Below are positions 5,116-63,706 of a stretch of 64,000 bases of DNA, piece by piece. The translations under genes and the position numbers were made by a program. The stretch covers positions 32,001 through 96,000 of the forward strand of contig CAVVXT010000005.1 of assembly GCA_963752255.1 (NCBI GenBank), read 5' to 3'. Source of the stretch: Nitrososphaeria archaeon. Its GTDB lineage: Archaea > Thermoproteota > Nitrososphaeria > JACIWG01. The notes under the pieces were generated by a model. That model was not told the origin of the DNA. It was given only the letters and a program-made list of their open reading frames with translations, and searched no databases. The first letter of the stretch is position 1; each line of letters opens with the position of its first letter.

Positions 5116-5237
5116 TTTTAAATAACTCTCTTTTAAAGTTAGAGCCCGTATAAATATATTAGCTTTTTCATCGGAAAAATTGGTTTACCTTTAAAGCCAA
5201 GGTACAAAAGTAAAACCATCTTTCAGAAAGAAGGGTA

Positions 5238-6125: not shown

Positions 6126-6286
6126 TAACCAATCGTAAGGTATTTACTTCTATTAAAATATTAATTTTAGGTCGTTTCAATTAACTCCTGCAGAGTAAAA
6201 TTTATGGTTATGGGAACAAAAAAAATATGTATGTTAGCCATAATGATCCAAGAAGATATAAAAGAATAGGCATGTAAACACTTTAG

Positions 6287-6859
6287 ATGAAAAAGTTAGA
6301 AGTTCGTATGGCTGCTGAAGAAAAAATCTATCTAATTAAAGGAGACATAACCGATCAAGACACCGATGCTATAGTTAACGCTGCAAATCCCAGTCTTATG
6401 GGGGGAGGAGGTGTCGATGGGGCCATACATCGGTCGGGAGGCCCGAAAATATTGGAGGAATGTAAACGAATAAGGGCTAAAGACTGGCCTAATGGTCTTC
6501 CAACGGGGAAGGCTGTAATCACTTCAGGAGGAAACTTGAAGGCTAAGTACGTAATTCACACCGTAGGCCCTATATGGTTTGGGGGGAATAGAGGTGAGCA
6601 AGAGCTCCTAGCAGACTCGTATAGAAACTCGCTTATGTTGGCTGTAAATAAGGGACTGAAAACGATATCTTTTCCCTCGATAAGTACAGGAGCGTACGGT
6701 TATCCCATTGAAAAAGCAAGTGAAGTTGCTCTAACTGTCGTAAAGGAGTTTCTTGACGAGCAAGAAGATCTTGGCAAAGTGGCCTTTGTTCTTTTTAGTC
6801 AGCATGATTTCCAAGCCTATAAAGAGACATCTAAAAGGATTCTAGAAAAAAATCCTTAA
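6287..6859 (+). CDS. Macrodomain O-acetyl-ADP-ribose deacetylase
   Basis: GDIT..DAIVNAAN..LMGGGGVDGAIH, VIHTVGP, FPSISTGAYGYP. Confidence 0.95.
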   Translation: MKKLEVRMAAEEKIYLIKGDITDQDTDAIVNAANPSLMGGGGVDGAIHRSGGPKILEECKRIRAKDWPNGLPTGKAVITSGGNLKAKYVIHTVGPIWFGGNRGEQELLADSYRNSLMLAVNKGLKTISFPSISTGAYGYPIEKASEVALTVVKEFLDEQEDLGKVAFVLFSQHDFQAYKETSKRILEKNP

Positions 6860-6937
6860 CGCCGATCATTACCGATTCTCTAAAACAGTCTTGAAATAAT
6901 ATTTTGAACACTTTCTAAGGCTTTGTTGACTTGACTT

Positions 6938-7495
6938 TTACACATTTTTTAGAGAAACCAATATCAACCAAATAGAAGCCATGATTATTGTCGCCGTCTC
7001 TTGTATTGCTAGGCCGTGCCAGGGCCACTGTTCAAACCAAATAATCGCGCACGTGATTCCAAAGACTAGGGATAAGGCTCCTATCTTTGGAGTACCAAGA
7101 GGCCACGAGAGAAAGCTGTAGACAAGCATCGTAACAACCGCCGCTAGAAAGAAAATCACCGATACCGTTCCATGAATTCCTCCAGCATCCTCGTTGAACA
7201 CTCCTATCAAGAAGAGACTGATAGAGGATACAGTAAAAAGCGGTGTCCATAACAAGAATTTCCAAGAACGTTTAACATATGACAGAAGTAGGTTAAACGA
7301 AATCGAGAGTAAGCCAGCCATCATAACTCCTAAGTCGAATATGTATGCGGCATAACCATTACGCGATATGCTGCCAAGGTCGCTCAAAGCGTTATCGTAA
7401 ATGCTAAACCATGGTGAGAGAACAATGGAAGCTACAATAAATAAGTATGGAAAAGTGGCCCCTATGATTCCTATAGTCTTAATCAGTTTAATCAT
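6938..7495 (-). CDS. DUF998-like membrane protein
   Basis: PWFSIYDNALSDLG, LIGVFNE..IH; multiple TM helices. Confidence 0.8.
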   Translation of the reverse strand: MIKLIKTIGIIGATFPYLFIVASIVLSPWFSIYDNALSDLGSISRNGYAAYIFDLGVMMAGLLSISFNLLLSYVKRSWKFLLWTPLFTVSSISLFLIGVFNEDAGGIHGTVSVIFFLAAVVTMLVYSFLSWPLGTPKIGALSLVFGITCAIIWFEQWPWHGLAIQETATIIMASIWLILVSLKNV

Positions 7496-7671
7496 ACAAC
7501 ATGTAAATGGAAAGACTGATAATTAACTATTATAGTGCCCCTCTTAGAAATTGATGATTTAGACTTATTTTAAATTCTTTATTATTCATATGGATTAGAA
7601 ATGTTATTAGTACCCAAATTTGTAAGCCTATACCAAGAAGATAGTACGATGACAGTTTACGTAACTGTAGT

Positions 7672-7986
7672 TTATGTTTGCTCGGATTTTTGTCCTTTAT
7701 TTCTGAACAAATAAATTGATAGAATGACTTCTACAATGATATTTCCAACTGCAAAAAGTGTAGCAGAAACTAAGTTTATGGAAACGATATATAGAATCAG
7801 AAGGCTTATCAAGATCCACACAAATACAAACTCTATTATAATTTGAGATGCCCCTGTTCTCTTTTGTACGCCTTCTCTACGCTTTTTCCTACTATCAAAA
7901 AAAAGATAGATGCTAATTAAGATTATGAATATGATACTAAAGGTAATGGTTATTACCCACCAAGTGAATAGATTAAATTCTATCAT
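7672..7986 (-). CDS. Small membrane protein (3 TM)
   Basis: Hydrophobic 104-aa ORF directly downstream of the P-type ATPase. Confidence 0.7.
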   Translation of the reverse strand: MIEFNLFTWWVITITFSIIFIILISIYLFFDSRKKRREGVQKRTGASQIIIEFVFVWILISLLILYIVSINLVSATLFAVGNIIVEVILSIYLFRNKGQKSEQT

Positions 7987-7999
7987 TTTCTATACACCA

Positions 8000-10574
8000 T
8001 TAGAACTTGCATATCTTATAAAAGAACACCTTTCCAGCGTCCACTAACAAAAGATAGGTGAGAACCATGAGAATTAGGAGAACCCAATAATATGCTGGAA
8101 GTGCTACAAACCCAAGGAAACTTCCTAGGAATGTGAATGGAAGTATAGTTCCAAAAGCTACCAAGGATAGTGTAAATATCGTTAGCCATTTTCCAGGACG
8201 ACTAGTTGACAAATGGTATACGTCTTGTTCTGATTACGAATATTACCAGGACTTCTGTCCAGAATGATTCTACGAACCATCCACTTTGGAATAGGGGTGC
8301 CTTGTCTACAGTTACAGCTCCAAATATGAAAAGCATAATGCCGAATGTTAGAAAATCGTAAAGTGAACTAAAGGGTCCAAAGAAGAGTGTGAACTTCCTT
8401 ACGAAGCTGATATCCCATTTCTTAGGCCATTTGGTGTATTCTTCATCGACATTATCTGTTGGGAGAGTCATGTTCGACATGTCGTAAAGTAGGTTCATGA
8501 AGAGTATCTGCATAGGTAGCATCGGAAGGAACGGGAGAAACACTGCTGCTGCAGCTACACTAAACATGTTTCCAAAGTTTGAACTTGTCCCCATCAAAAT
8601 GTATTTAGTAGTATTGCCAAAGATCTTGCGCCCCTCTTCTATTCCATTAGCAAGTGTGCCTAAATCCTTCTCAAGGAGCACTATGTCTGCTGCGTCCTTT
8701 GAGACGTCAACCGCAGTGTCTACAGAAATGCCCACATCTGCCTCATAGAGAGCTGGAGCGTCGTTAACTCCATCCCCCATAAAACCAACGACGTGACCGT
8801 TTTTCTTTAAGGCTTTAATAACATCGAGCTTCTGTTCAGGAGTGATCCTCGCAAATATCGTGGTCTCTTCTACTAACTCTTGAAATTCGACAGTACTCAT
8901 CTGTGCTAGCTCTGAACCATTAACTACTTTATTGACAGAGATCTTAAGATCTTCACAGACCTTTCTTGCAACAAGTTCGTTGTCTCCAGTTAATATTTTG
9001 ACCGTAACCCCCATCTCTTTTAATTTTTCAATAGATTGATGTGCACTCTCCTTAGGTGGGTCAGTAAATATCAGAAATCCCAAAAAAGTCAGATCATTTT
9101 CATCCTCAACTGAATACAGTTTTTTTTCTTCTATTTGGCGATAAGCGATAGCGAGAATACGATATCCCTGTTGTGAAAGATTGAGGAATTTTGCGTTAAT
9201 AGAATCGATTGTATCACTTATAAATACGTTCTTTTCAATTATGTCAACGCTTTTGCATTTTGGAATGATCGATTCTGGGGCCCCTTTTGTTATGAGCATT
9301 AAGCCCCCTTCCTTTCTAACTATAACCGACATCATTCGTCTTTGATAATCGAAAGGAATTTCTTCCACTTTAGAGTATGTCTCCAAACCTTTCTGATTGT
9401 TGTTCTTTATCGCGTATTCCCAAATTGAAGCGTCGATAGGATTTCCAGTAACTTTCGCTCCAATGATAGCTGTGTTACAAAGTAAGGCGTATGTTAAAAT
9501 TCTAGGATCCTTATCTTCTTCAAGACTATAATAGTCTTTTAGACCGATCTTCCCATCTGTAAGTGTGCCAGTCTTATCTGTATAAAGAATGTCCATGTTT
9601 CCAAAATCTTCAATGGACACTAAGCGTTTTACAATGACCTTTAACTTAGCCATATTTCTGGCTCCTTGTGAAAGGCTTATGGTTACTATGGCGGGCATAA
9701 GTTCAGGAACTAGCCCAACTGCAACCGCAAGAGAGAAGAGAAGCGCGTCTACCATCGGACGACCAACGATTATTAGAGCAGCGAAAATTCCGATGGCCAG
9801 GGCAAGGGTTAGAGTCATAAGCAGGGTTCCATATCTCTTAACTCCTCTCTGGAATTCAGTTTCCGGGTGAGATCTTGTTAAACTCTTAGATATGGACCCT
9901 AGTTCTGTGTTTTTTCCAGTTGAGAAGACAACTCCTAGTCCGCTACCGTGTTCAACTGTGGTGCCCATGAATAGGTAGTTTTTTAATTGCTGTGGTGTAG
10001 GATTTTTGATATCGATTGGATCCTTTGTTTTTTCGACTGGAAACGATTCTCCAGTAAAGGTTGCTTCGTTAACTTCGAGGCTATTGTATTCAACTATCCT
10101 CATGTCTGCTGGAACAATATCGCCCACATAGACTGTGACGATGTCCCCTGGAACCAAAAAACTTGAATCGATTTCAGAATTTTTTCCATCCCTCTTAACA
10201 ACTGCTTTCAGAGATACACTTTTCCTGAGGTCGTCAACGATCTTTTCCGCTTTATTTTCATTGTAGAAACCTAAAATAACGCTTATAACAATCATTGAAA
10301 GTATAACTATAGACTGATCGAACTCACCAAAGAAGCCCGCTATAACGGCAGCCGCGATCAGAATTGTAAATATTGGATTCTTTAATTGCCTTAAGAACAC
10401 TTGGATTCCACTAAAGGCTTGTCTTGGCAGTAGGTTTTGACCGTATGTTTTAAGCCGTTGCTGAGCTTCCCGTTGTGATAAACCTTCCAAATTTGTCTCA
10501 AGAGCCTTGTAAACGTCTATCGGAGGAGGTGACCAGTAATCAGTGCGTTTAAGAATAGTTTGGTCTTTCGACAT
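8000..10574 (-). CDS. mgtA: Mg2+-translocating P-type ATPase (frameshift near 8205)
   Basis: TGES, VPELMP, DKTGTLT, KGAPE, TGDN, GDGVNDAP, SSNFGNMFS, FQSGWFVES; last TM helices continue in ORF 8000..8212. Confidence 0.9.
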
Positions 10575-41093: not shown

Positions 41094-41167
41094 GGGCCTG
41101 TAGCTCAGCCAGGTAGAGCATCGGACTTTTAATCCGAGGGTCGAGGGTCCGAATCCCCCCAGGCCCG
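41094..41167 (+). tRNA. tRNA-Lys(UUU), intron-less
   Basis: GGGCCTG/CAGGCCC acceptor, GCTC/GAGC D-stem, TCGGA-CTTTTAA-TCCGA anticodon arm; T-arm has A50.C64 mismatch and C55. Confidence 0.95.
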
Positions 41168-41170
41168 CCT
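41150..41170 (+). repeat. attL core, 21 bp CGAATCCCCCCAGGCCCGCCT
   Basis: Identical to 63686-63706; overlaps tRNA 3' end. Confidence 0.95.
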
Positions 41171-43031: not shown

Positions 43032-43495
43032 CTATCTCGCAAACTAGTATTTTCTAGGGCTGTTGGATCATTCCTTTGATCTGTTGATGGTTCGATGTTT
43101 TTTTTCCAATACCTGCAAGGTGTGAACGATCCTGTTATAGAATAAATTGCTTCCTTGGTTTGTTCTTCATCATGGATGCCGGATAAATGTATTAATTCAT
43201 GTATGGTGGTTTTGTTTATTTCGTCTATGTAGATATCTATTACATTGTCATGATCCAAAGAGCAATCGTAAACGTGACCATCCCCATCTGCCGTTTTTAT
43301 TATAGTCTCTTTAGCGTTTTTACAATGCCAGCAACATTCACAAAGGTCTATGTCAGAGATGTTTCTATAACTAATCAAGCTTTCCAAAAAAACAAAGGCT
43401 TCCCCTGTCTCTCCAATTGCACAACCACTACAATACCTAATATCATGGATTTTGCCATGTGGAAATTCCGATTTAAGAGTAAACTCTAGAGTCAT
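43028..43495 (-). CDS. Cys-rich HExxH protein
   Basis: CSGC, CECCWHC, TTIHELIH..G..DE. Confidence 0.6.
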   Translation of the reverse strand: MTLEFTLKSEFPHGKIHDIRYCSGCAIGETGEAFVFLESLISYRNISDIDLCECCWHCKNAKETIIKTADGDGHVYDCSLDHDNVIDIYIDEINKTTIHELIHLSGIHDEEQTKEAIYSITGSFTPCRYWKKNIEPSTDQRNDPTALENTSLRDR

Positions 43496-45174
43496 TGGCC
43501 GTCATCCTTTTTTTTATCGTCGCCCTTGCTTGTCGGTGGATTCGGTGGTCCGGTGGATATTTCTATGGGTTCGGATTCCAAGCATAACATATGTGTGGGG
43601 ACTATTGCTTGATCTGGGTGCTTGGTGCAAGTGTTATCTTTATAGAACTTGCAACTATTAGAGCAACATTTATCGGTTTTGGGTAAAGTATGGGACACGG
43701 TATCGGACACCACAATGTCCGATGTCCCATGCACTTGTTTCGTATCATCGGAAAGTATGGGACAAACTGGCTTTGCGGTATATGTACCTGCTTGATTTTG
43801 TTTATCGTTTGGCATATATACCAGAAAACCGTTTTGTCCCATACTTTTGTTAAAGTCGGAAATCATTTCATTTTGCAAATTTTGAGTATCGGACACGGGA
43901 CAAAGCGGTGTCCCATCCGGTGTCCCAAACTTTTTGGAATCTAACTTTAAACTGCTAACCTTAGATAGTATGTCAGTAATTGCATATTGCAACTTGTGGA
44001 ATTTTGCTTTACCCTTCTCCTCTGGGTATTCGATGACGTAACCTCTTTCTCTCATCAAGTCGAGATGTCTTAGAATAGTTTTTTCTGAAGTTTTAAGGTC
44101 CTTCGCTATATCAACCCTTTCCTTCTTGTGAATCTCTGCACCCTCATTTTCTATCTTCTTGCTCTGAAGACATGCTAGCAGGTTCCTTATTCTGCAGTCT
44201 ATATCAAGTGTCATTGTCGTTAAAGGTTCTAGTGCGATCTCCAGAGCCTTGTTGAACATTTCTGGGGTTGCCATGAGAACCTTCTTTTCTCCGATCATTT
44301 TGTAAGGAAGCTTTCTTTGATACAGCAGGGAAGTAAGCTTTATGAGTGCAAGGATTTTATCAAAGTCTCCCCGTGTTCTTAAGTGTGAAGTATTAAGGAT
44401 CTTCGTTATTGCATTTGGATATGGAACTATCACATAGCAGGGTTCTACCTTTTCGATAACTTGCTCCATAACTTTGAATGCAAAATCGTAGTCCGTAATT
44501 TTTCTCTTACCAAGATAAACCTCTGAACGCTGTTTTTCTTTCTCCTCTTTAAATGCCAAAATATTTTTTGTCTGCGCTTCACTCTCATCCGGGTTAACTG
44601 CCCACGCTCTCCTATCAAACTGGGAATCAACCATAAACCTTGTTGTTGTAGTGATAACGGTCATTGGGGGGATCTTGTTCTGCTCGGTTGTGAAGTGTCT
44701 GCTTTCTTTATCTCTTATGGTGTATTCAACTAAATATCCACCGTCTTCGGTGCTGAGAAACTTTATAGTTGAAACCCCCTGCTTCTCTTCGTCAACATAA
44801 CCCATTTCTTTAATATAAAGAATGTCATAACCGCTTAAGTCGGTGTAGTCTAAGGCATGTTCTGAGAATCGACCGACTTCCTTTGTTTTGAAAGCCTTAC
44901 TTAGTCTTGCCAAAAGACTTTTACCTGCACCTGGTTGACCCATTAAAAGAAGAATCTGGTACAGTTGAGGGTCAATTTTTCCGCTCTTTCCTGACAATAA
45001 GAGAACAAAAATTAACTGTTTGTTCTGATCTTCCCCAGTAATAACTTTATCAAGACATTCTTTTTTCAAAGAATCAAGTGGGTCATTTGAGTTTAAGATT
45101 TCATCTGCTTTTTTAGTAGCTTCTTCTAATATCTGACTTACATCGTCGATTTCTTCAATGTCTTTGTCAGTCAA
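43492..45174 (-). CDS. Mobile-element replication ATPase/helicase (AAA+/MCM-like) with C-terminal wHTH
   Basis: GQPGAGKS Walker A, ILYIKE Walker B, ITTTT sensor, FDRR Arg finger, IAKDLKTSEKTILRHL..GYV HTH. Confidence 0.8.
   Translation of the reverse strand: MTDKDIEEIDDVSQILEEATKKADEILNSNDPLDSLKKECLDKVITGEDQNKQLIFVLLLSGKSGKIDPQLYQILLLMGQPGAGKSLLARLSKAFKTKEVGRFSEHALDYTDLSGYDILYIKEMGYVDEEKQGVSTIKFLSTEDGGYLVEYTIRDKESRHFTTEQNKIPPMTVITTTTRFMVDSQFDRRAWAVNPDESEAQTKNILAFKEEKEKQRSEVYLGKRKITDYDFAFKVMEQVIEKVEPCYVIVPYPNAITKILNTSHLRTRGDFDKILALIKLTSLLYQRKLPYKMIGEKKVLMATPEMFNKALEIALEPLTTMTLDIDCRIRNLLACLQSKKIENEGAEIHKKERVDIAKDLKTSEKTILRHLDLMRERGYVIEYPEEKGKAKFHKLQYAITDILSKVSSLKLDSKKFGTPDGTPLCPVSDTQNLQNEMISDFNKSMGQNGFLVYMPNDKQNQAGTYTAKPVCPILSDDTKQVHGTSDIVVSDTVSHTLPKTDKCCSNSCKFYKDNTCTKHPDQAIVPTHMLCLESEPIEISTGPPNPPTSKGDDKKKDDGQ
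43685..43933. repeat. Iteron-like array inside ATPase gene
   Basis: AAAGTATGGGACA at 43685-43697 and 43752-43764, inverted at 43835-43847 and 43921-43933 (1 mismatch); GTATCGGACAC at 43700-43710 and 43886-43896. Confidence 0.85.
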
Positions 45175-49068: not shown

Positions 49069-49266
49069 TTATTCCTGTCTTACGATTTTCGCTCTTTCGT
49101 GGAGGTTGCGCTGGATTTCTTCTATTCTCAGCCTGACCGCTTCTTTGACGAACTCGCTTCTTGAAGTGTAGCCTAGTTCAGCGTGTTTTATGATCTCGTC
49201 TGCCATGTTAAGTAGATCCTCTGGCAGCTGTACTGTTTTCCAGCCGCGTTTTTGAGCATGTTCCAT
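49069..49266 (-). CDS. RHH/CopG-family regulator
   Basis: KTVQLPEDLL..ADE.....GYTSRSEFVKEAVR. Confidence 0.88.
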   Translation of the reverse strand: MEHAQKRGWKTVQLPEDLLNMADEIIKHAELGYTSRSEFVKEAVRLRIEEIQRNLHERAKIVRQE

Positions 49267-49350
49267 GGTTCTTCCCTTGATTCTTATGATATGTATGCGA
49301 TAAGCTTATATATGTTTTTAGGTTAACCATAACATTATCATGTGATATGA

Positions 49351-49662
49351 ATGAGATATAGGGGTGTACAACTTCCAGAAGGTTTAGCGGAAAGGGTTAG
49401 ACATCTTATTACCGAGCATAAGGAGCTCGGATACGCGAGCGTGAAGGAATTTGTCCAAGATTCCGTGAGAAGAAGGGTTGAGCAGACAGAAAAACTCATG
49501 GAATATGAAATGCATGATATAGGAGAGGCTGCCAAAAATTTTGGCCACCAGTCACTTCAGCAGCGTGATAAGGCTTCTCAAGCGGCTTCTAACAGCACTG
49601 ATGTCCCAAATAATGACAGGCAGGCCAGCTCCTTAAGCCCCACAGAACATTGTGAAATGTGA
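49351..49662 (+). CDS. RHH/CopG-family regulator
   Basis: RGVQLPEGL..V...LGYASVKEFVQDSVRR; paralogue of the divergent gene. Confidence 0.82.
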   Translation: MRYRGVQLPEGLAERVRHLITEHKELGYASVKEFVQDSVRRRVEQTEKLMEYEMHDIGEAAKNFGHQSLQQRDKASQAASNSTDVPNNDRQASSLSPTEHCEM

Positions 49663-50441
49663 GGGAGAAGGTCATGTTGACACAAGTGATTGGGCTAGGA
49701 GTAGTAGGAAAGGCTCAAGCGTTTCTACTAAGCAAACTAGGACATAAGGTCTACGGCTACGACATACGAGCAGTTCAACCAGAACAGTACTTCACATTAT
49801 GCAATGACCCCATCCAAGACGTTGACATTTCATTTATTTGCACACCTGAAAATGCCGCTAATGAGGTTATTGAGAAGTTGAAACATTATGGCGTGAAAGG
49901 TTTAATTGTCATAAAGAGTACGGTTCCAGTTGGCACAATTAACTGTTTAATGAAAGATTTTGATATTCATATTTGTTATAATCCTGAGTTTCTAAGAGGG
50001 AAGTGTTCTTTTGAGGATGTGCTCAACCCTAGGAGAATAGTTATTGGTGAATGTTGCAGTGAACACGGAAACATTCTTAAACAAATCTACAAGCCTCTGG
50101 GTCAACCGATATATCGGACAGATCCAACGACAGGTGAATTAATCAAACTTGTTTCAAACAGCTTACGGGCGGTTAACATAAGTTTTTGGAATCAACTCTA
50201 CCTTTTATGCAGACAAGTTGATGCCGATATAAAAATTGTTGCTGAAGCTGCTGATTCTGGCAAAGTGTTAGGAGAATGGGAAGGCGGGAAATGGGGCACA
50301 AAACGGTTTGGTGAGCCTTACGATGGTAAGTGTCTGGATAAAGATTTAGACCATTTATTTAAAGCATTTTGTGAGTGCGGTGTTGATCCTTCAATCTTAG
50401 AAGCTACTAAAAAGTTTAATGAGCAGTTGAAGGAGATGTAG
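49659..50441 (+). CDS. UDP-glucose/GDP-mannose dehydrogenase family, short form (HasB-like)
   Basis: GLGVVG, KSTVPVGT, NPEFLR, ELIKLVSN, GKCLDKD catalytic Cys; lacks C-terminal domain. Confidence 0.88.
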   Translation: MREKVMLTQVIGLGVVGKAQAFLLSKLGHKVYGYDIRAVQPEQYFTLCNDPIQDVDISFICTPENAANEVIEKLKHYGVKGLIVIKSTVPVGTINCLMKDFDIHICYNPEFLRGKCSFEDVLNPRRIVIGECCSEHGNILKQIYKPLGQPIYRTDPTTGELIKLVSNSLRAVNISFWNQLYLLCRQVDADIKIVAEAADSGKVLGEWEGGKWGTKRFGEPYDGKCLDKDLDHLFKAFCECGVDPSILEATKKFNEQLKEM

Positions 50442-50443
50442 AA

Positions 50444-51637
50444 ATGATAGTAGAAATACTTGAATTTTTGAGGATGCTTGAAACAGGGGAGATATATTGG
50501 CTCCCCTTTCACCTCCTAATATTCATAGTCCTATCCCTTAGCCTTAGAGACTTCCTCGCAAATAGGCATAAACCTTCTATCTACGCAGATGAAGATCCTC
50601 CTGTGAGCGTGATAATTCCAACATACAAGGAAAATCCAGATATACTTAGGAACTGTGTTAGAGCCGCCGCCAACGACAAACCGGAGGAAATAATAATCAT
50701 ACATGATGATGGACTGGATTCAGTGGAGCGGATAGGTAGAGAGTTCGGTGCGACTGTAATTTCATTTCCTAAAAGGGTTGGAAAGAGGAAAGCAATGGTT
50801 GAAGGGTGGAAACGAGCCAAATATGATATAATTGTGCACCTTGATGGGGACGAAATCGTTGAGAATGGATGTTTAGGAGAGCTGGTTAAACCCCTTCAAG
50901 ACGCCAAAGTTGTAGGGGTAGGGGGTAGAAGTGTTGCCTATCTAAATACCCACCCCAACGGGCTCGGTAGTTGGATAGCTTGGAGGCTGAGCATATTACA
51001 GGAAATTAACAGAGGTTTCACGTGTAAAGCACTTAGACCGCATTTGGTAAATATAGATGGAAGGGTTAACGCGTGGAGAAGGAGCTTTCTGCTGAAGCAC
51101 GAAAAAGATTTTCTTAACGATATGTTCATGGGAAAACGTTCAGATATAGGAGATGACAGGTACCTTACGCAGGCGGCTAATCTCGAAGGCTGGAATACCA
51201 CATATCAGGAATCGGCAATAGCGGGAACAGCCAGTCCAGCAAGTTTCAAAGACTATGTTAAACAACAGCTCCGCTGGACGAGAAGCGGATACAAGTTTTT
51301 CTATCTAGACATTAAAAGAGGATTGAGGAATGTGACATGGTTTTATTACCTATCTCAAGTGTTCTTTTATGGGGCGGCTGTCAGTTTCCTCTTTGCCATC
51401 ATACATGACACCTTCTTGATTCCTCCGGTGTATGGGCTCTCATTGGGGACCTTACCTGTTGTAATGTTTCTTGGTTCCTCGCTAGTTGCGGTTATAGGAA
51501 TGCTTTTCGCTGGGCGTAGGCAGGTTAAGTTAAGAGAGTTCCTATGCTTTGGTCTAATTGGGGTTTTGGTGATGTTTCCCACCACACTCTATGCGATGTT
51601 TACTGTGCGGAAACAGTCAACTTGGGGAACAAGATGA
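50444..51637 (+). CDS. Processive GT2, hyaluronan-synthase (HasA/NodC)-like
   Basis: VSVIIPTYKE, DDG, GKR.A, LDGD, IGDDRYLT, QQLRWTRS, C-terminal TMs, WGTR. Confidence 0.85.
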   Translation: MIVEILEFLRMLETGEIYWLPFHLLIFIVLSLSLRDFLANRHKPSIYADEDPPVSVIIPTYKENPDILRNCVRAAANDKPEEIIIIHDDGLDSVERIGREFGATVISFPKRVGKRKAMVEGWKRAKYDIIVHLDGDEIVENGCLGELVKPLQDAKVVGVGGRSVAYLNTHPNGLGSWIAWRLSILQEINRGFTCKALRPHLVNIDGRVNAWRRSFLLKHEKDFLNDMFMGKRSDIGDDRYLTQAANLEGWNTTYQESAIAGTASPASFKDYVKQQLRWTRSGYKFFYLDIKRGLRNVTWFYYLSQVFFYGAAVSFLFAIIHDTFLIPPVYGLSLGTLPVVMFLGSSLVAVIGMLFAGRRQVKLREFLCFGLIGVLVMFPTTLYAMFTVRKQSTWGTR

Positions 51638-52209
51638 AAGTAAAAAGAATCTTAGGTGCAACAATTTTCTCAATAGGTCTTGTATTAGCAGCATTCGTCT
51701 TTATCGTCGTCCAAGTCTTGACCTCTTACCCATTCCACATTTATTTACTGCCTGCCATATCTTTTTCTCTGCCCATGGGAACTGACAAAGTATTCGGAGC
51801 CCTCGCATACGATCAATTGCTGGAAATTGGGGTTGGGTTAGCGTTTATCGGACTATTCATTTGGGGAGTTTCAAAGTTTGGAAAGATCAATCGAAACGCG
51901 ATCACCTACGCTTTAGGGTTTACATCGTTTGTTACGGGAAGTATAGGGGCAGTTGTCGTTTATGCAGACGCTATCCTTCCTTGGTCTGTTTTTCCGTGGT
52001 TTGGAGTTACAGATGGTGGAGGCTATCCTTGGATCACAGAGCGAGTGACGTCTAACACCGGTTTCATGAAAATGCCAAGCTATACGCCGAGAGACCCAAA
52101 TGTTTACTTCCTGAATTACGCCGAAGTGTTGGTTATTTCTGTTTTGCTGGCAATTTTAGGTTTCGTTCTATATAAAAAGGTAGATCGTGAACACGATGAA
52201 GTGGTATAA
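51634..52209 (+). CDS. Membrane protein (4 TM), third gene of polysaccharide cassette
   Basis: ATG overlaps GT2 stop (ATGA); hydrophobic segments. Confidence 0.75.
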   Translation: MKVKRILGATIFSIGLVLAAFVFIVVQVLTSYPFHIYLLPAISFSLPMGTDKVFGALAYDQLLEIGVGLAFIGLFIWGVSKFGKINRNAITYALGFTSFVTGSIGAVVVYADAILPWSVFPWFGVTDGGGYPWITERVTSNTGFMKMPSYTPRDPNVYFLNYAEVLVISVLLAILGFVLYKKVDREHDEVV

Positions 52210-52651: not shown

Positions 52652-55535
52652 ATGTCCACGAGATTGGTTTCTGAACCTGATTTTGTTGCGAATCGTCTTT
52701 TACCTAAGTTTAAGGAAGCAGCAGGCGTTCTCAATGTTCTAAGCCAGATTGACTATCATGTTGAGAAACGCATTAATGGTGACCGGGCTGACCTGGTTGC
52801 AGAGAGGGCTGGTAAGGGCCTTTTTGTGTTAGAGGCCAAGTATAAGAAGAAAGTGGGTAATATAGAAAGGGATATAGAACCAAGGGATCCAGAAGTCGTC
52901 AAACAAGCAGCAAACTATGCGACACTTGGCGGCTATCTGTATTATGGAACATGTAATCTGAAAAGAATAGTTCTTTTTCAAATGAAGCCTGGTGTCAAAG
53001 CATTTGAAAGTGAAGTAGCCTCCTTCGATTTTGATGAAAACCCAAAGTGGGCAGAGGATGTTCTAAAAATTGCCTTAGGTCTTGTTCCTGTCAAGGCTAA
53101 AGCGTTAGACGATTCGCTTGTAAGTGCTCTGCATGAAGCTTTCACAGACCTTTACATAGAATTTCTATCTTCGTTAAGAGAAAGATTAAAGAATGAAGTG
53201 TTCAAATCCAGATTTGAAGATTGGTTTGGAAATCAAGGAATTGAATATGGCGAGGAAAATGTTAGGAAGGTTGCAGAAGAAACTACATATCTACAGATAA
53301 ACAAATTACTTTTTTATTATGTCGTAAAGACAATTTATCCTGAAAGACTAAAGACCCTTGTTATAAATGAGAATGATGATGTCTACGAAGTTCTTAATGG
53401 GTACTATGATGATGTGAAGAAAATAGATTATGCCCCTATATATCAAAATGATGTTATAAGTGAAATACCTTTCACAGTAAGGACAAAAGAAAGGTTTAGA
53501 ACTCTTGTAGATACTCTAAGTGAATACGATTTTACAAAGATGGAAAGTGACTTTCTTGGGCGAGTTTATGAAAAACTGATTCCTCCACAGGAAAGGAAAA
53601 GGTTGGGCCAATTTTATACACCTCCTGAAATAGTTGATCTTATAGCAAAACTAACTATAATGGATAAAGAGGCAAAAGTTCTTGATCCAGCATGTGGTTC
53701 AGGCTCGTTTCTCGTTAGAGCATATCATAGATTAAGAGAACTAAATGGAATGCCAAGAGAAATATCTGGTCCTCTAACAGAAGAATTTCACAAAAGACTC
53801 ATTGATCAAGTCTATGGTATAGACATAAACCAATTTCCAGCACACTTATCAGTTATAAATCTGGTTATACAAAATCCAAAGGCCAAGATAGATACCGTAA
53901 ATGTAGTTGTTAAAGATTTCTTTGATGTCAGGCCACGCCAGGTAACTTTCACAGGCTTCGACAGTATGACAGCTGAAGGTGAAAAGACTATTATAAAAAT
54001 GCCTTATACATTTGATGTTATAGTTGCTAATCCCCCGTATATACGCCAAGAACTGCTTGGGGATAAAGAGAAGGAGAAAATATTTAGTTTGATAGAGAAG
54101 GAATTTAAGGACAAAGTTTTCATAGGCAAGGCAGGAAGATCAGGGGCTATCTCATTAGATAGAACAAGTGATATCTACATCTTTTTCTATATTCATTCTA
54201 TAAACTTCCTCAACAAAGGAGGAAAGCTCGGTTTCATATCTTCAAACAAATGGCTTGAAGTGGGATACGGCGAATCATTTCAGGAATTTCTACTCCAAAA
54301 CGTGAAAATATCCTTTATAATCGAATTTGACAGAGCCGTTTTCCCTGACGCTGAAGTAAATACGACGGTGACCATCCTTCAAAAGGAACCAGATTCCACG
54401 CAAAGGAACAACAACGTTGTTAGATTTGTTAGATTAAAGAAAAGAATGGACGTAACAGAATTGCAGGAACTATTAGAATTAGAGAAAGACATCGAGAACA
54501 GAAATGTGAGGCTTACAACCATTCAACAAAGATACCTTAATCCTGGCAAGTGGAATACATATCTCCGAGCACCTGTAGTATTCAAGAAGATCATTGAAAA
54601 TACTAAAGTGCAATCTCTATCGGTAATCGCAGACGTTTTTAGGGGACCAACTACAGGCTACAATGACTACTTTATTCTGTCAAAGGAAAAGGTAAAAGAA
54701 TGGAATATAGAGCCAGAATTTTTGGTTCCTTGCATTTCATCACCTAAAAAAGTTAAAGGTTTAATCATAGATCTTAAAGACATTACAGAATATTTTTTTG
54801 TATGTAGCAAACCGAAAGATGAACTTAAAGAAACAAATGCACTAAAATATGTAGAATTTGGCGAGCATTTTGAAGTAGATGTAACACGTGGTTCGAAAAA
54901 AGGGAGAAAAAGACTACCTCAACTTGAAACTATTAAATCTCGCCAAATCTGGTATAATCTAAACAAGCCAAAGAATACACCAATACTTTTCCAATACATG
55001 ATAGATGAAAAATCAAGAGCCTTCTTGGAATAAAGGAGGAGTGCATGCCCCAAACATCATGCATTATGTGATACCTAAAAACTTGGGAGATGTTTTACCA
55101 CTATTAGGCTATTTCAATTCATGCGTAGGCTCACTAATGGTCGAGTTATATGGCCGTTCATATGGCGGAGGAGTTCTTAAAATAGAAGTTTACGAACTCA
55201 AGGGCCTTCCAACAATAGATCCTACCTGCCTTAAAAAAGAAGAAAAAGCAAAAATAGGTAACGCCTTTTTAAAATTAGCAGAAGCGATAAATAAAAGGAT
55301 TAAAGTAGAGAAAGAGTTAGAATCAGCAAAGTCAAAAACTGGAAAAGAGAAAGGCCTATTTGAAGGCGAAGCCAAACAAAGACTTGAATTAGCAATTGGA
55401 ATTGAAAAGAAAAGTCAAAAGGAACTTGATAACCTTGTTTATAATGTCCTTGGGCTCTCAGAAAAGGAAAGATTACAGGTAGAAGAAGGGCTTACAGAAT
55501 TGCAGGAACTACGAAAGTCACGAACTCAAGTATAA
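52652..55535 (+). CDS. Type IIG restriction-modification enzyme (REase-N6 MTase-TRD; frameshift near 55026)
   Basis: RADLV..VLEAK nuclease, GQFYTP, LDPACGSGSF, NPPYIRQE, YGRSYGGG.LKIE in ORF 55005..55535. Confidence 0.88.
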
Positions 55536-58632: not shown

Positions 58633-59691
58633 GTGCATCACCAATTGGTGAATCCAGAACATCTCAAGGTCGTGCTCGGAGGATGCAGTTCTATTGCAGA
58701 ATGGAAGAAAATCCATCCAGACGAGAAACTAGATCTTGCTAACGTCAAACTTCCCTCAGCTGACCTTTATGAAGCTGATCTTTCTTATGCTGATCTTTCT
58801 TACGCTTATCTTTCTCTTGCTGATCTTTCTGTTGCTAATCTTACCGATGCTAATCTTTCCCACGCTGATCTTTCTGTTGCTAATCTTACCGATGCTAATC
58901 TTTCCCACGCTGATCTTACCGATGCTGACCTTTCTGTTGCTAATCTTTCTTATGCTAATCTTTCGCAAGCTGTCCTTAAAGGAGCATCACTTTCAGAAAC
59001 TAGTCTTGTTAGGACCAGTCTGGACGACGCGAATTTTTCTGAGGCAGTAATGGATGGTGCAATCTTGGCAGGTATCAATCTAGCCAAAGCTGATGGGCTT
59101 AAGGCAATTATTCACGGTGGGCCAAGTAGTGTAGGAGTAGACACAATGATAGAGTCTTTCCGCTCCGCAGGTAATCGTTTTACACCTGAATTGGAAGCCT
59201 TCTTTCTTGGTACGGGCGTGCCGAAAGAGCTTCTTGATAGTATTCCCAAAATCATAGGCGAAGTAAAGTATTGCCCTACTTATATTGCGTATGGGCAACC
59301 AGATGTTAATTTTGCAAGGAGATTGAAGTCTGACTTAACAACGAATGATGTCTCTTGCTGGCTATATGACACCGACAAAACAGCTGGTGAGAGAACTTGG
59401 AAGGAAATTAGACATGAAATGCAAAGGGCTGAAAAGGTGATCGTACTCTGTTCTGCTAAAGCGTTAGTTAGAGATGGTTTGCTTAAAGAGATAGAGGAGC
59501 AGATAGACAGAGATCGGGACAAGCTAATTGCTGTTTCTTTAGACGACTTGTGGAAACAAGATGGGTTCCATGTAACGAGGGGAAGCAGGAACCTGAAGCC
59601 TGACCTTATGAATAAGAACTGGGTTGACTTTATTCACAACTCGACTTATGACCATTCCCTAAATGAATTATTAAAGGGACTAAGAAGATAA
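58633..59691 (+). CDS. Pentapeptide-repeat + TIR domain protein
   Basis: A(D/N)L(S/T)x repeats; TYIAYGQPD..FARRL, CWLYD, VIVLCS, LLKEIE, LIAVSLDD. Confidence 0.88.
   Translation: MHHQLVNPEHLKVVLGGCSSIAEWKKIHPDEKLDLANVKLPSADLYEADLSYADLSYAYLSLADLSVANLTDANLSHADLSVANLTDANLSHADLTDADLSVANLSYANLSQAVLKGASLSETSLVRTSLDDANFSEAVMDGAILAGINLAKADGLKAIIHGGPSSVGVDTMIESFRSAGNRFTPELEAFFLGTGVPKELLDSIPKIIGEVKYCPTYIAYGQPDVNFARRLKSDLTTNDVSCWLYDTDKTAGERTWKEIRHEMQRAEKVIVLCSAKALVRDGLLKEIEEQIDRDRDKLIAVSLDDLWKQDGFHVTRGSRNLKPDLMNKNWVDFIHNSTYDHSLNELLKGLRR
58819..58908 (+). repeat. Perfect 45-bp tandem duplication within pentapeptide repeats
   Basis: GCTGATCTTTCTGTTGCTAATCTTACCGATGCTAATCTTTCCCAC x2. Confidence 0.9.
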
Positions 59692-60087: not shown

Positions 60088-61591
60088 ATGAATGATAGTA
60101 GAGGATTTTCTTCCGCTAACCCACTTATAATGACGGAAAAACCCTCAAAAGAGATTTCAGACAGAATGAGGAAGGTCAGAAGCAAGGGAACTAAGATCGA
60201 AAAGACGACGGAACTTTTGCTAAAACAGATTTTCCTCGAATATGAAAAACAACCAAAAATGATCGGACACCCAGACTTCATATTAAAAACCGAAAAAATC
60301 GCTATTTTTTGTGACAGCGCTTTCTGGCATGGTCGGAGAACCAAGAAACAACATTTCAAACGTAATCGGCAATTTTGGGAACATAAGATCAAAGAAAACC
60401 GATTGAGAGACAGAAGGAACAACCAGACCCTATCGAAACTAGGTTGGAATGTATTGCGTTTTTGGGATGAGGATATTCTCAAAAAACCAAGTTACGTTAC
60501 TAGAACGATATTAAGACAAGTAAGTCCCCCTCCAGAAAAACGTCTAGCCGCAGTAGAATTGTTTTGTGGGGTTGGTGGAATGGCTCATGGTTTCTTCTTA
60601 GAAGGGATTGATGTAGTTGCAGGATTCGATGTAGACAAAACTTGCAAGTATGCTTTTGAGAAAAATAATTCTACCACATTCATAGAGAAAAACGTTAGCA
60701 TGTTAGGCGGCCAAGAAATCAAAAGGTTATACCCCAAAGAATCTGTTAAAATACTTGTGGGCTGTGCACCGTGCCAACCGTTTTCCACCTACACAAACGC
60801 GAAGAAAGGAAACTCCGATAAATGGAAACTCCTTTACGAGTTCTCTCGAATAGTAAACGAAGTCCATCCAGACATAGTTTCAATGGAAAATGTTCCCGGA
60901 CTAATCTCATACGGAAAAGGTAAATTCTTTCAGGATTTCTTAGAAAATCTTAGGCAACAAGGTTATCATGTATGGCATCACGTCATAAATTGCCCAGAAT
61001 ATGGAATTCCTCAAAGAAGACGGAGACTAGTTTTGCTGGCCTCTTTATTCGGTGACATAAACATAATCCAAAAAACACACCCTGCTGGGAAATACTCTGA
61101 CAGTACGTGATGCAATCGGAGATTTAGAGCCTATATCCGCAGGAAGCTCAAGCATCAAAGACCCATTACACAGAGCTCGAAATCTTACCCCTAAGAACAT
61201 GCTTAGAATAAGGTCAACTCCCCAAGGTGGAGACTGGAGTTCTTGGCCAAAAGAATTGATGCTTGAATGCCACAAAAAAGACAGTGGAAAATCCTTTGGC
61301 AGTGTATACGGAAGAATGAGTTGGGATGAGCTCAGTCCAACCATTACTACTGAATTTATCGGTCTTGGCAACGGCAGATTCGGTCATCCTGTGCAGGATC
61401 GTGCAATATCTCTAAGGGAAGCTGCGCTTTTACAAACTTTTCCAGTGTACTATGACTTTCTTGATCCTAATGCGGCATTCTGTTCAAGAAGAATCGCTCA
61501 GCATATAGGCAATGCAGTTCCGGTTAGGTTGGGACAAGTGATAGCGGAAAGCATTAAACAACATGTGAGGGGATTTGATGGAAAACAGTGA
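60088..61591 (+). CDS. Vsr endonuclease fused to C5-cytosine DNA methyltransferase (frameshift near 61096)
   Basis: RMRKVRSKGT, GHPDF, FCDSAFWHG, RFWD (Vsr); ELFCGVGG, APCQPFS, ENV, QRRRR, then REAALLQTFP, IGNAVP in 61199..61591. Confidence 0.88.
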
Positions 61592-63554
61592 AAAATACAC
61601 ACTTACGATTAGCTTGAACGTTCTTGAAAGCTTGGGTATAAACCTGTATAGTAACGTTCCAGCAGTTCTCTCAGAAGTCGTTGCAAATTCTTGGGATGCA
61701 GACGCAGAAGAAGTAAGAATAACGTTGAATACTCAACTTGGCGAAATTACCATCGAAGACAACGGAAAAGGTATGACCGCACGAGATATGAACGAAAAAT
61801 ATTTGAAAGTGGGTTATCACAGACGGGAATACGAAGAAACGCTTACTCCAAAACATATGCGTCACGTCTTTGGAAGAAAGGGAATAGGAAAACTTGCTTT
61901 ATTTTCTATTGCAAACAAAGTGGAGGTACAAAGCGTAAAAGAAAATAACGAAGTTTTGGAAAAAAGTGGTTTCATCATGGACGCTCACGATATAGAGGAG
62001 CATATCAAACGGGAAAGTGGCCAAAACCCTGACAAAAATCGATCATCTGATTATCATCCTATTGCAGTTGATCCAGAGAAGATCACCTTTGATAAGGGAA
62101 CTAAAATCATTCTGAAGGAATTGAAGAAAGAAATATTCAATCTCGGCAGCGCTTTGAAAAGAAGGTTGGCAAGACGCTTCAGTATAATAGGAGAAGAACA
62201 TGATTTCGCGGTTTTCGTTGATGGTCAACAAATCACGGTAGATGATAGAGATTATTTGAAAAAGCTTCAATACATCTGGTTAATAGGCGGAGAAAATGAG
62301 GATCTTCTCAAAGATTGTAAAAACTTGATACAACATGGAAAAATTGATGGGTTAATTGACGAAAAAGAAGATTACAAAGTAACTGGATGGGTTGGCACTT
62401 TAGACGAACAAAAAAGCGTAGAAGAAGGTAGCAATACCGTCGTTGTCTATGCTTGGGGAAAACTCATTCATGAGGATATTTTGAAAGACGTAAAAGAAGG
62501 AGGCGTGTTTTCTAAGTATCTCATTGGCGAACTTCGTGCAGACTTTCTTGATTACGATGGAAAACCAGACATCTCAACCACTGGTCGTCAAATGGTCAAG
62601 GAAGATGATGTTCGCTTTATTATACTCAAGAATTTCTTTAGGGAAAAAATTCTATCTGCAATCCATTCAAAATGGGAACCTTGGCGCAAAGAAATTGCTG
62701 TAAAAAAGGCGCTTGAAAATGAAAAAATCAAAGAATGGTTTGAAACTCTGTCGCCTGATAAGAAAAAGTTTGCTGAAACCCTTTTTGCCAAGATTGAGTC
62801 AATTCCAGTTTCTAATCCCGATAGCAAGAAGGAGCTTTACAAACACGGAATAATTGCGTTCGAAACGCTAGCTCTCAAAGATAGACTTAGCGTACTTAAT
62901 GAAATTAAATCAGATAAAGAGTTCCAAGTACTTCAAACAATAATGGGTCAAATTGATTCTCTAGAAGCGATTCTTTACTCAGATATCGTAAGAGGAAGAA
63001 TTACCGTTCTTACAAAATTTGCTAGTATCGCAACTAGCGAAAAAGAAAAGATAATTCAAAAATACCTATTTGAACATTTATGGTTACTTGATTCTTCATG
63101 GGAAAGAGCTAGTACAAACCAGCGGATGGAGGAAACTTTTAAAAAGGAGTTCAAGGCTGTAAAGTTTACAGAAGAAGAAAAGAAGGCACGGATCGATATT
63201 CGATACAAAACTGCGGCAGGAAAACATATAATAATAGAACTAAAGAAATATGATGCAAAAGTAAGTATTTCAGTTCTTTCTAGGCAGGTACAGAAGTATA
63301 AACTCATTCTTCAAAGATGTTTGAGAAAAGTATTTTTAAATACGCAGCAACCGCCATTCGAAATAATATGTGTTCTCGGATCTTGCCCAACCCCTCAAGA
63401 AGATGATGAAGCTAACCGGAGGTCACTAGGCGTACATAATGCTAGATATGTTACATATGATAGTCTGATTAATGATGCGATGGAAGGGTACAAAAGTTAC
63501 CTTGATAAGGAAAAGGAAGTCGAACGGATAAGAACGCTAATAAAAGATTTATGA
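61575..63554 (+). CDS. GHKL/MORC ATPase-containing restriction endonuclease (HgiDII/BbrUII-like)
   Basis: LYSN..LSEVVANSWDADA, EDNGKGM, GRKGIGK; C-terminal RIDI...IIIELKK PD-(D/E)xK. Confidence 0.85.
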   Translation: MMENSEKYTLTISLNVLESLGINLYSNVPAVLSEVVANSWDADAEEVRITLNTQLGEITIEDNGKGMTARDMNEKYLKVGYHRREYEETLTPKHMRHVFGRKGIGKLALFSIANKVEVQSVKENNEVLEKSGFIMDAHDIEEHIKRESGQNPDKNRSSDYHPIAVDPEKITFDKGTKIILKELKKEIFNLGSALKRRLARRFSIIGEEHDFAVFVDGQQITVDDRDYLKKLQYIWLIGGENEDLLKDCKNLIQHGKIDGLIDEKEDYKVTGWVGTLDEQKSVEEGSNTVVVYAWGKLIHEDILKDVKEGGVFSKYLIGELRADFLDYDGKPDISTTGRQMVKEDDVRFIILKNFFREKILSAIHSKWEPWRKEIAVKKALENEKIKEWFETLSPDKKKFAETLFAKIESIPVSNPDSKKELYKHGIIAFETLALKDRLSVLNEIKSDKEFQVLQTIMGQIDSLEAILYSDIVRGRITVLTKFASIATSEKEKIIQKYLFEHLWLLDSSWERASTNQRMEETFKKEFKAVKFTEEEKKARIDIRYKTAAGKHIIIELKKYDAKVSISVLSRQVQKYKLILQRCLRKVFLNTQQPPFEIICVLGSCPTPQEDDEANRRSLGVHNARYVTYDSLINDAMEGYKSYLDKEKEVERIRTLIKDL

Positions 63555-63685: not shown

Positions 63686-63706
63686 CGAATCCCCCCAGGC
63701 CCGCCT
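63686..63706 (+). repeat. attR core, 21 bp (also left boundary of next element)
   Basis: CGAATCCCCCCAGGCCCGCCT identical to 41150-41170. Confidence 0.95.

Follow-up and report, generated by a model that had tools for sequence, protein, structure and literature searches.

The stretch of DNA analyzed here (the window) comprises 64,000 nucleotides (nt) of contig CAVVXT010000005.1 from a Nitrososphaeria archaeon (positions 32,001 to 96,000 of the contig). At positions 49,069 to 52,209 it contains a compact gene cassette, which encodes a ribbon-helix-helix (RHH) regulator (RHH2), a short nucleotide-sugar dehydrogenase (mini-dehydrogenase), a membrane-embedded family 2 glycosyltransferase (GT2) and a small protein with four transmembrane (TM) segments (4-TM protein), and which is flanked by a divergently oriented gene of a second RHH regulator, RHH1 (Table 1). 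An earlier note, made from the sequence of the window, had interpreted these genes as a hyaluronan-synthase-like (hasB-hasA) cassette on an archaeal integrative element. We favor a broader reading, to which we assign a probability of about 0.55: the cassette is a synthase-dependent system making a uronic-acid-containing glycan.

The genes of the operon are tightly coupled, as the earlier note had described. Only 2 nt separate the stop codon of the dehydrogenase gene from the ATG of the GT2 gene, and the GT2 and 4-TM genes overlap by 4 nt (ATGA), indicating translational coupling. The 11 nt between the RHH2 stop codon and the dehydrogenase ATG contain GGGAGAAGG; with the alternative GTG start the two genes would overlap by 4 nt. 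The 255-aa form starting at the ATG matches database record P0156 (P and L numbers denote our protein records and loci, respectively). For the 4-TM gene the listed open reading frame (ORF) begins at 51544, while the likely start is the ATG located at the GT2 stop codon. The two RHH proteins are indeed paralogs (43% identity across 46 aa, E = 2e-11); RHH1 is similar to the N-terminus of NikR, and a Pfam search with RHH2 gave no match. The intergenic region between them contains TTATATAT, and a 21-nt direct repeat with 81% identity is found at this region (49282-49302 and 49338-49358). For the 4-TM protein, a word-index search returned the protein itself alone. A search of the ESM Atlas gave no score of at least 0.9 and no family, and no PADLOC model fits any of the three cassette proteins.

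Table 1. Positions of the cassette genes and of the boundaries and integrase of the surrounding element in the window.
Feature	Position	Strand	Evidence or remark
RHH1, ribbon-helix-helix regulator, 65 aa	49069-49266	-	Divergent from the operon; Pfam RHH_1, E = 2.9e-4
Divergent intergenic region, 84 nt	49267-49350		Candidate promoter and operator
RHH2, paralog of RHH1, first gene of the operon, 103 aa	49351-49662	+	phrog_38461, E = 1.6e-9
Mini nucleotide-sugar 6-dehydrogenase, 255 aa	49674-50441	+	ATG start; alternative GTG start at 49659
Membrane-embedded processive-type GT2 synthase, 397 aa	50444-51637	+	Pfam, NCBIfam, PDB, fold, motifs
4-TM protein of no known family, 191 aa	51634-52209	+	Four hydrophobic 19-mers
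tRNA-Lys (UUU), integration target	41094-41169	+	ARAGORN
attL, at the 3' end of tRNA-Lys	41150-41170	+	21-nt exact direct repeat with 63686-63706
Integrase of the element, 466 aa	41226-42626	+	phrog_1, E = 1.3e-8
attR, far border of the element	63686-63706	+	Exact copy of the 3' end of tRNA-Lys

The mini-dehydrogenase matches PF03721 (partially, at the end of the NAD-binding domain) and PF00984 (the central domain), while PF03720, the C-terminal UDP-binding domain, is absent, which leaves the three-domain architecture of the UDP-glucose dehydrogenase (UGDH) family incomplete. Its score with TIGR03026 is 145.6 bits (cut-off 189.8), and the best NCBIfam equivalogs are UGDHs: TuaD with 86 bits and AglM with 85.5, compared to 57 for UDP-N-acetylmannosamine (UDP-ManNAc) dehydrogenase and 15 for TviB. 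The alignment to solved UGDHs runs to the end of the central domain, and the protein terminates 113-139 residues ahead of the ends of full-length UGDHs. Its structural model (mean predicted local distance difference test score, pLDDT, 93.1) retrieved UGDH structures with TM-scores of 0.83-0.88 relative to the query (TMq) and about 0.5 relative to the target (TMt). Hence the hasB-type enzyme of the earlier note is UGDH-like and lies directly upstream of the GT2 gene, but at 255 aa it lacks the UDP-binding domain.

Among the homologs listed, all those with at least 37% identity (about 100 clusters) are 148-309 aa long and contain PF03721/PF00984 without PF03720, and full-length UGDHs appear solely at 34% identity or less. 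The short dehydrogenase is therefore not an accident of truncation. The few homologs with an organism name come mostly from Bathyarchaeia. An alignment of 25 family members shows no variation in GxGxxG, NPEF, the KST threonine, the K-x3-N pair or the catalytic Cys, and the Asp of C-x3-D is found in 22; the translated window gene carries GLGVVG, K-x3-N and GKCLDKD, and so has the UGDH catalytic residues. In UGDH the Cys, the Lys/Asn pair and the Asp are catalytic, and GxGxxG binds NAD. Four further residues, C56, C127, C128 and H131 (P0156 numbering; motif GECCxxHG), are invariant in all 25 members and absent from canonical UGDH; together they could provide a metal or redox site and so compensate for the missing domain. 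We rejected the idea that the dehydrogenase is split and that a neighboring gene encodes the C-terminal domain, as such an ORF is present in only one of the 80 loci examined and belongs to a separate full-length dehydrogenase.

The GT2 has one N-terminal and three C-terminal hydrophobic helices and matches general Pfam GT2 families. Among the NCBIfam models, the best profile match is that of NodC (TIGR04242), which covers the full length with 129.5 bits but does not reach its cut-off of 550; PgaC/IcaA scored 56 bits. When the single sequence was compared with solved structures, the best matches were the hyaluronan synthases (HAS) of a Chlorella virus (CvHAS, E = 5e-17) and Xenopus (XlHAS1, 5e-16), with cellulose synthase at about 1e-3. 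A profile of the GT2 clade gave 175 bits for CvHAS, 119 for XlHAS1 and 57 for the next chain, and retrieved no chitin synthase at E 1e-5. Structure prediction, a check proposed in the earlier note, gave a confident AlphaFold (AF2) model (pLDDT 88.6; predicted TM-score, pTM, 0.88), which was searched with Foldseek: the 13 top chains were all HAS (TMq 0.59-0.76), followed by BcsA, and the highest value, 0.76 with XlHAS1, spans the membrane part. In a viral structure library the best matches were GT2s of 570 aa from giant viruses. Given these sequence and structure matches to HAS, HAS-like processive-type synthase is a fair label for the fold.

The motifs IGDDRYLT, QQLRWTRS and terminal WGTR, which the earlier note had singled out, are all present in the translation. 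Together with LDGDEI (the DxD motif), IGDDRYLT and QQLRW align to the corresponding CvHAS motifs, consistent with a GT-A core, and WGTR aligns to CvHAS residues 455-458 in the gating loop. A WGTR-type gating-loop motif and QxxRW are given as features of processive synthases in an excerpt of PMC11750622.

Searching plasmids by TBLASTN, we found that the GT2 is about equally distant from NodC and HasA: rhizobial NodC proteins reached 27.5-28% identity (E = 6e-29) and Bacillus HasA 26% (E = 7e-25), while PgaC was 22% identical. HasA of Bacillus tropicus and a Lactococcus plasmid GT2 end exactly at WGTR, as does the window GT2. A search of genome contigs and viral contigs with the single GT2 protein yielded no locus, whereas alignment-based scans did. 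The phylogenetic tree was built from the window GT2, P0002-P0005, those of P0007-P0069 with a length of 340-480 aa, GT2s from the fetched loci and, as references, two NodC proteins, one HasA, the Lactococcus GT2 and PgaC (outgroup); bacterial HasA was thus represented by a single named sequence, and viral and vertebrate HAS were left out. In the FastTree phylogeny of 104 rows the window GT2 falls within a clade of 56 rows (support 99), in which all organism-named rows are archaeal (L001-L005) and which takes nine of the ten included GT2s linked to short dehydrogenases. HasA, NodC, the Lactococcus GT2 and the giant-virus matches form a separate clade of 31 rows (support 96). A tree of 41 rows, hand-picked after the first tree had been seen, was calculated with IQ-TREE (LG+C20 PMSF, quick search) and gave the same split: 18 rows on the window side and 16 on the HasA/NodC side, with support of 99 and 93, respectively, in the Shimodaira-Hasegawa-like approximate likelihood-ratio test (SH-aLRT). 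Forcing the window clade together with a trio of Bacillus HasA sequences cost 26.3 log-likelihood units (approximately unbiased, AU, test, p = 0.001; the group was named after the tree had been seen). From the trees and the AU test, the GT2 represents a sister lineage of the HasA-plus-NodC assemblage and does not branch with characterized HAS. The GT2 therefore branches neither with HasA, as the earlier note would lead one to expect, nor with the synthases of poly-N-acetylglucosamine (PNAG) or cellulose, and the grouping with PNAG, cellulose or chitin synthases that it had named as a refutation did not occur; what stands of its HAS-like GT2 is a membrane-embedded QxxRW synthase with HAS as the closest solved structures.

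The sequence variation within the clade bears on the markers from which hyaluronan had been deduced. GDDR versus GEDR was rejected as a product marker, since both occur within the window's own clade: GEDR is found in five of its 18 members (P0007, L002, L004, P0030 and P0014). NodC itself carries GEDR, and the nearest kin of NodC carry GDDR. Similarly, WGTR is also present in non-HAS kin, and the C-terminal motif varies inside the window clade (WGTR, WLTR, WITR, WETR or WATR; WLSR in NodC). The distinction made in the earlier note between GDDR (HAS) and GEDR (NodC) thus does not hold, and neither GDDR nor WGTR marks hyaluronan synthesis, a useful negative result in itself. The contacts of CvHAS with the carboxylate of glucuronic acid (GlcA) are K177 (in GKR) and R341 (in QxxRW), according to an excerpt of PMC12987647. 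Equivalents of both are kept in the window GT2, but both are generic to the whole family, and a HAS-specific carboxylate-binding residue was therefore rejected as a marker.

The collar around the acceptor in XlHAS1 consists of Y288, F292, C307, W382, S385, D342 and R343, as listed in part of PMC11750622. The window GT2 keeps W278, S281, D238 and R239, which belong to generic motifs, while Y248, F252 and C267 of the CvHAS collar align to L182, Q186 and N203. In the alignment the HasA/NodC/viral clade shares RYxxAFxxER...C(C/S)GPxxxYR, and the window clade has LIELNRD...V(V/I)DGRxNAWR instead. To our knowledge, all characterized members of the HasA/NodC clade handle N-acetylglucosamine (GlcNAc) at the acceptor site. 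Judged from the aligned residues, the altered collar hints, without proving it, at another sugar being handled by the window clade. A His-Asp pair (residues 321-322), of which the Asp is near-invariant in the clade, is located where the first C-terminal TM helix ends on the outer side; a conserved acidic residue by the channel exit would be unexpected for an acidic polymer.

We also analyzed the genomic linkage of the short dehydrogenase. A metagenome scan with the dehydrogenase alignment gave 514 confirmed loci, of which the best 80 were kept; eight had less than 300 nt downstream, leaving 72 informative ones. Directly downstream and on the same strand, 19 of them have a NodC/HAS-like GT2 (at least 60 bits with the clade profile), 32 a different membrane GT2 of about 394 aa (PF13632 only; DED, SED, QRxRW), seven a gene resembling epimerases/decarboxylases of the short-chain dehydrogenase/reductase (SDR) type, and 14 another gene or nothing. 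A membrane GT2 of either kind thus directly follows the short dehydrogenase in 51 of 72 loci, most commonly with a 4-nt overlap, and the pair recurs in many archaeal loci. In the tree of dehydrogenases the type of partner switches many times, and strict co-inheritance of dehydrogenase and GT2 was rejected for this reason; the nearest kin of the window dehydrogenase pair with SDR enzymes. The variety of downstream consumers and the SDR-paired nearest kin fit the supply of a soluble UDP-uronic acid. Taken with the SDR partners, the UGDH equivalogs are only suggestive of an oxidation of UDP-glucose to UDP-glucuronate.

The second GT2 family, the commonest partner of the short dehydrogenase (L034, L038, L059, L060, L063, L067, L070, L071, L073, L078 and others), is unrelated to the window GT2; it carries LDEDS, SEDxRFG and KQRxRW, and has no match in the Protein Data Bank (PDB) by single sequence and a weak one to BcsA by profile (E = 0.006). 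In the SDR-paired loci L027, L029-L032, L052 and L093 the partner is an extended SDR, which resembles LegB, GalE, UXS or ArnA and scores under all curated cut-offs; in L029 it is followed by a Dpm1/ArnC-like polyprenyl-phosphate glycosyltransferase, an order that recalls the Ugd-ArnA-ArnC logic.

Among relatives of the whole cassette, metagenome contig L102 contains all three genes in the same order, spaced by 1-2 nt; its 4-TM protein is 27% identical to that of the window (E = 7e-16) and is its sole homolog, so that the 4-TM partner is confined to the nearest kin of the window GT2. The search for shared synteny suggested in the earlier note was in this respect successful, but the setting of L102 looks chromosomal, with a Dpm1-like GT2 and a methyltransferase gene after the cassette. 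In a metagenome-assembled genome (MAG) of Bathyarchaeia, L002, a short dehydrogenase (43% identity) directly precedes a GT2 (35% identity), and the pair adjoins genes of an SNF2 helicase and an Mrr-like nuclease. Of the named relatives of the GT2, the closest (L001, a Desulfurococcaceae MAG, 40% identity) stands alone between tRNA-Glu and tRNA-Pro (5027-8576), inside a cluster of four tRNA genes and with no 4-TM gene. Judging from these neighbors, the synthase clade is often located in mobile or variable regions. On a Methanoperedens contig (L005, 2864-6907) the distance between a clade member and a large terminase gene is 1 kb, and in a Terraquivivens MAG (L004, 4518-7365) another member is found beside a weakly HK97-capsid-like ORF, which suggests that head-tail viruses or proviruses of archaea carry the clade. 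Bacterial and viral loci with GT2s of the HasA/NodC clade (L008, L012, L017, L021, L107 and L111) have an adjoining dehydrogenase of full length.

Compared with HasA-HasB, represented by hasA of a pXO1-like plasmid of Bacillus tropicus (L107), the cassette has the same outline: a GT2 of about 400 aa with DxD, GDDR and QxxRW that ends in WGTR (about 26% identity) and adjoins a dehydrogenase gene. It differs in the separate clade and other acceptor collar of the GT2, in the archaeal host and the mobile element, and in the dehydrogenase, which has about 440 aa and a UDP-binding domain in L107. The Chlorella virus and Xenopus HAS (PDB 7SP7, 8SMM and others) share with the window GT2 the GT-A core, the interface helices and the gating loop, and the viral enzyme is likewise carried by a mobile genetic element. 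However, they are only 17-19% identical to it, their Y/F/C collar is not kept, and the window GT2 ends at the gating loop, without TMH5-6, and has one N-terminal TM helix instead of two. The 4-TM protein may stand in for TMH5-6 of the eukaryotic and viral enzymes. NodC of S. meliloti and R. leguminosarum (L108 and L109; about 27% identity) belongs to the same length class and has the same topology, but differs in GEDR, WLSR, the CCCGP collar and the clade; L108 has the order nodB-nodC-nodI, whereas the window shows no nodA/nodB context (44-57 kb).

Two other known systems are similar in design. The pneumococcal type 3 locus pairs the synthase Cps3S with the UGDH Cps3D. Its capsule, a polymer of glucose (Glc) and GlcA, is made by this single HasA-like synthase and is acidic without containing GlcNAc, as stated in part of PMC12220298; we liken the cassette to it by description, not by sequence. 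Such a combination of UGDH and synthase makes a polymer other than hyaluronan, and the gene pair therefore does not imply hyaluronan. The Lactococcus plasmid pair (L111) follows a Cps3-like design, with the GT2 in the HasA/NodC clade and a dehydrogenase of full length. In PgaC-PgaD and IcaA-IcaD a GT2 synthase has a small membrane partner encoded just downstream. The 4-TM protein resembles PgaD/IcaD in being small, multi-TM, of no enzymatic family and translationally coupled, and may play an analogous role, but it shows no sequence similarity to them, and PgaC is only about 22% identical to the GT2.

Based on these observations we propose the following model. The mini-dehydrogenase would be active and would oxidize a UDP-hexose, most likely UDP-glucose, to the UDP-uronic acid, which would then most likely be UDP-GlcA. 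The GT2, whose active site would lie at the membrane face, would use this product and add the uronic acid, either alone or alternating with a second UDP-sugar, and the growing beta-linked chain would be passed across the membrane via a pore of the four GT2 helices, aided by the 4-TM protein as a putative accessory membrane subunit. In this model the product is a polymer and not an oligomer or a glycolipid. The co-transcribed RHH2 and the divergent RHH1 would bind the intervening repeats and set the level of expression, and the glycan may alter the host surface, affecting, for example, virus adsorption or aggregation.

Several observations weigh against this model. The substrate and even the activity of the dehydrogenase are uncertain, because the protein lacks the domain by which all solved UGDHs hold UDP; a separate C-terminal domain was encoded nearby in only one of the 80 loci, 3.7 kb away, and the Glu of NPEFLRE, found in 21 of the 25 family members, is Gly in the window protein. 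Processive synthesis of a polymer is not certain either, because NodC, which is equally close, makes short oligomers. The 4-TM protein is kept in just one other locus. There is no dehydrogenase beside the GT2 in L001 and none adjoining it in L003-L005; the GT2 clade is therefore not always locally dependent on one. Finally, we found no literature on this dehydrogenase family or this GT2 clade.

The same observations enter the alternatives. The dehydrogenase-free loci, together with the full-length match to NodC as the best NCBIfam profile and the other enzymes with which the dehydrogenase family pairs, would suit a GT2 that makes a neutral beta-glycan or oligomer (chitin, a NodC-like chito-oligosaccharide or a glucan), with the dehydrogenase serving another pathway or step. 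We doubt this, since the NodC score is far under the cut-off, no nodA/nodB-like, deacetylase or chitinase gene lies nearby (44-57 kb of the window), the GlcNAc-type collar common to NodC and HAS is not kept, and the 2-nt junction and the same pairing in 19 of 72 loci argue for a functional link. Still less likely is a GT2 that works non-processively or in few steps, as a transferase that places a uronic acid or hexose onto a membrane lipid or carrier and exports no polymer. Such a role would agree with the pairing of short dehydrogenases with PF13632-only membrane GT2s (32 of 72) and with Dpm1/ArnC-like transferases, with the genes after the cassette in L102 and with the pneumococcal type 3 synthase, which initiates on lipid (excerpt of PMC12220298); however, the fold of the GT2 matches HAS across the membrane part (TMq up to 0.76), and QxxRW and the WGTR gating loop are motifs of processive synthases (PMC11750622, in part).

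The absence of the UDP-binding domain and the invariant C56, C127, C128 and H131, foreign to canonical UGDH and suggestive of a different site, raise the question whether the mini-dehydrogenase is a working nucleotide-sugar dehydrogenase at all; it might instead be a remnant that regulates or serves as a scaffold, or an oxidoreductase acting on a substrate other than a nucleotide. We consider this quite improbable: the full UGDH catalytic set is kept across a large family under evident selection, and the neighbors of its genes encode sugar-nucleotide enzymes (SDRs, nucleotidyltransferases and glycosyltransferases). Very little probability, lastly, remains for a true hasB-hasA system, in which the GT2 uses UDP-GlcA from the dehydrogenase and builds hyaluronan on the archaeal surface from alternating GlcA and GlcNAc. 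The closest solved structures of the GT2, its end at WGTR as in Bacillus HasA, the UGDH-like gene upstream and the family-generic carboxylate residues (PMC12987647, in part) are what such a system would have, but NodC is as close to the GT2 as HasA is, the GT2 belongs to a separate clade (SH-aLRT 99 against 93 for HasA plus NodC; AU p = 0.001), the HAS-invariant Y/F/C of the acceptor site is L/Q/N within a collar replaced throughout the window clade, and GDDR and WGTR are not diagnostic. The hyaluronan product of the earlier note is thus not specifically supported, and we treat it as one possibility among several, not as a favored one.

Synthase-dependent exopolysaccharides such as cellulose, chitin, hyaluronan and PNAG have been studied in depth in bacteria, eukaryotes and giant viruses, while our literature search found no paper on such a system in archaea. 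Likewise, searches for archaeal hyaluronan synthases or NodC, for archaeal UGDH lacking the C-terminal domain and for chitin synthases or GT2 of Bathyarchaeota found no paper describing the module; in a study that screened 97 archaeal proteomes for chitin synthases, HAS and NodC appear solely as outgroups (PMC5122149). What is notable in the cassette is the minimal dehydrogenase, the archaeal synthase clade and the mobile setting, not an identified hyaluronan system. If the preferred reading, a uronic-acid glycan, is true, it offers a route, open to testing, by which archaea could make an acidic surface polymer and a compact synthase clade of about 400 aa for mechanistic and engineering work, and a UGDH-like enzyme of 255 aa would challenge the need for the C-terminal domain in nucleotide-sugar binding. 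More speculatively, and with odds clearly against the proposal as a whole, the cassette could belong to an undescribed archaeal pathway for acidic surface glycans, which is common in Bathyarchaeia and relatives and consists of a minimal two-domain dehydrogenase and a synthase from the sister group of HAS/NodC. Here it would reside on a defense-rich element with a private 4-TM protein and RHH switches, a new uronic-acid polymer would coat the host and alter virus adsorption or aggregation, and the nucleotide sugar would be bound unlike in any solved UGDH.

The cassette is part of an integrated element of about 22.5 kb, as deduced from the integrase gene adjoining the tRNA gene and from the second copy of the tRNA-Lys 3' end, which marks the far border (Table 1). 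The 21 nt of the repeat are the final 20 bases of tRNA-Lys and one further base. The integrase has no Pfam or NCBIfam match, and neither it nor a 560-aa P-loop protein of the element gave a TBLASTN match in plasmids and phages. The archaeal models of small and large subunit rRNA win within the Rfam clans, so that the host genome is archaeal, and the archaeal integrative element of the earlier note is confirmed. No GT2 of this type was found in nine other genomes of the order of the host (threshold E 1e-10; completeness 68-97%), and among 300 other genomes sampled from the class the top score with the GT2 profile was 237 bits, compared with 524 for the window GT2 itself; the cassette is therefore accessory. 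The sole full-length nucleotide-sugar dehydrogenase of the host resembles UDP-ManNAc dehydrogenase (231 bits) more than UGDH (120 bits), and the element therefore supplies its own enzyme. The cassette has restriction and TIR (Toll/interleukin-1 receptor) genes as neighbors on a mobile element, which makes a role in virus-host conflict testable; such a role would parallel hyaluronan synthesis by chloroviruses and phage-encoded modification of O-antigen.

The other genes of the element include the above P-loop protein (43492-45174, minus strand), which has a GQPGAGKS motif and a weak ArsR-type helix-turn-helix (HTH). It is probably the replication or primase-helicase protein of the element; the phage collection yielded nothing for it, and Pfam gave the HTH alone. 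A type IIG-like restriction/methylase gene is present as two overlapping ORFs of 793 aa (52652-55033) and 176 aa (55005-55535), the latter matching the C-terminal part of type II methyltransferase models, and may reflect a frameshift or a programmed split. Further downstream, a pentapeptide-repeat protein is fused to a ThsB-like TIR domain (58633-59691), with a 15-nt periodicity in the repeat region (58718-59002). In another fusion (60088-61110) the N-terminal half of a Dcm methylase is joined to a Vsr endonuclease domain, while a separate ORF (61199-61591) encodes the C-terminal part of the methylase, and a type II restriction enzyme with an HATPase_c_3 domain is encoded just inside attR (61575-63554).

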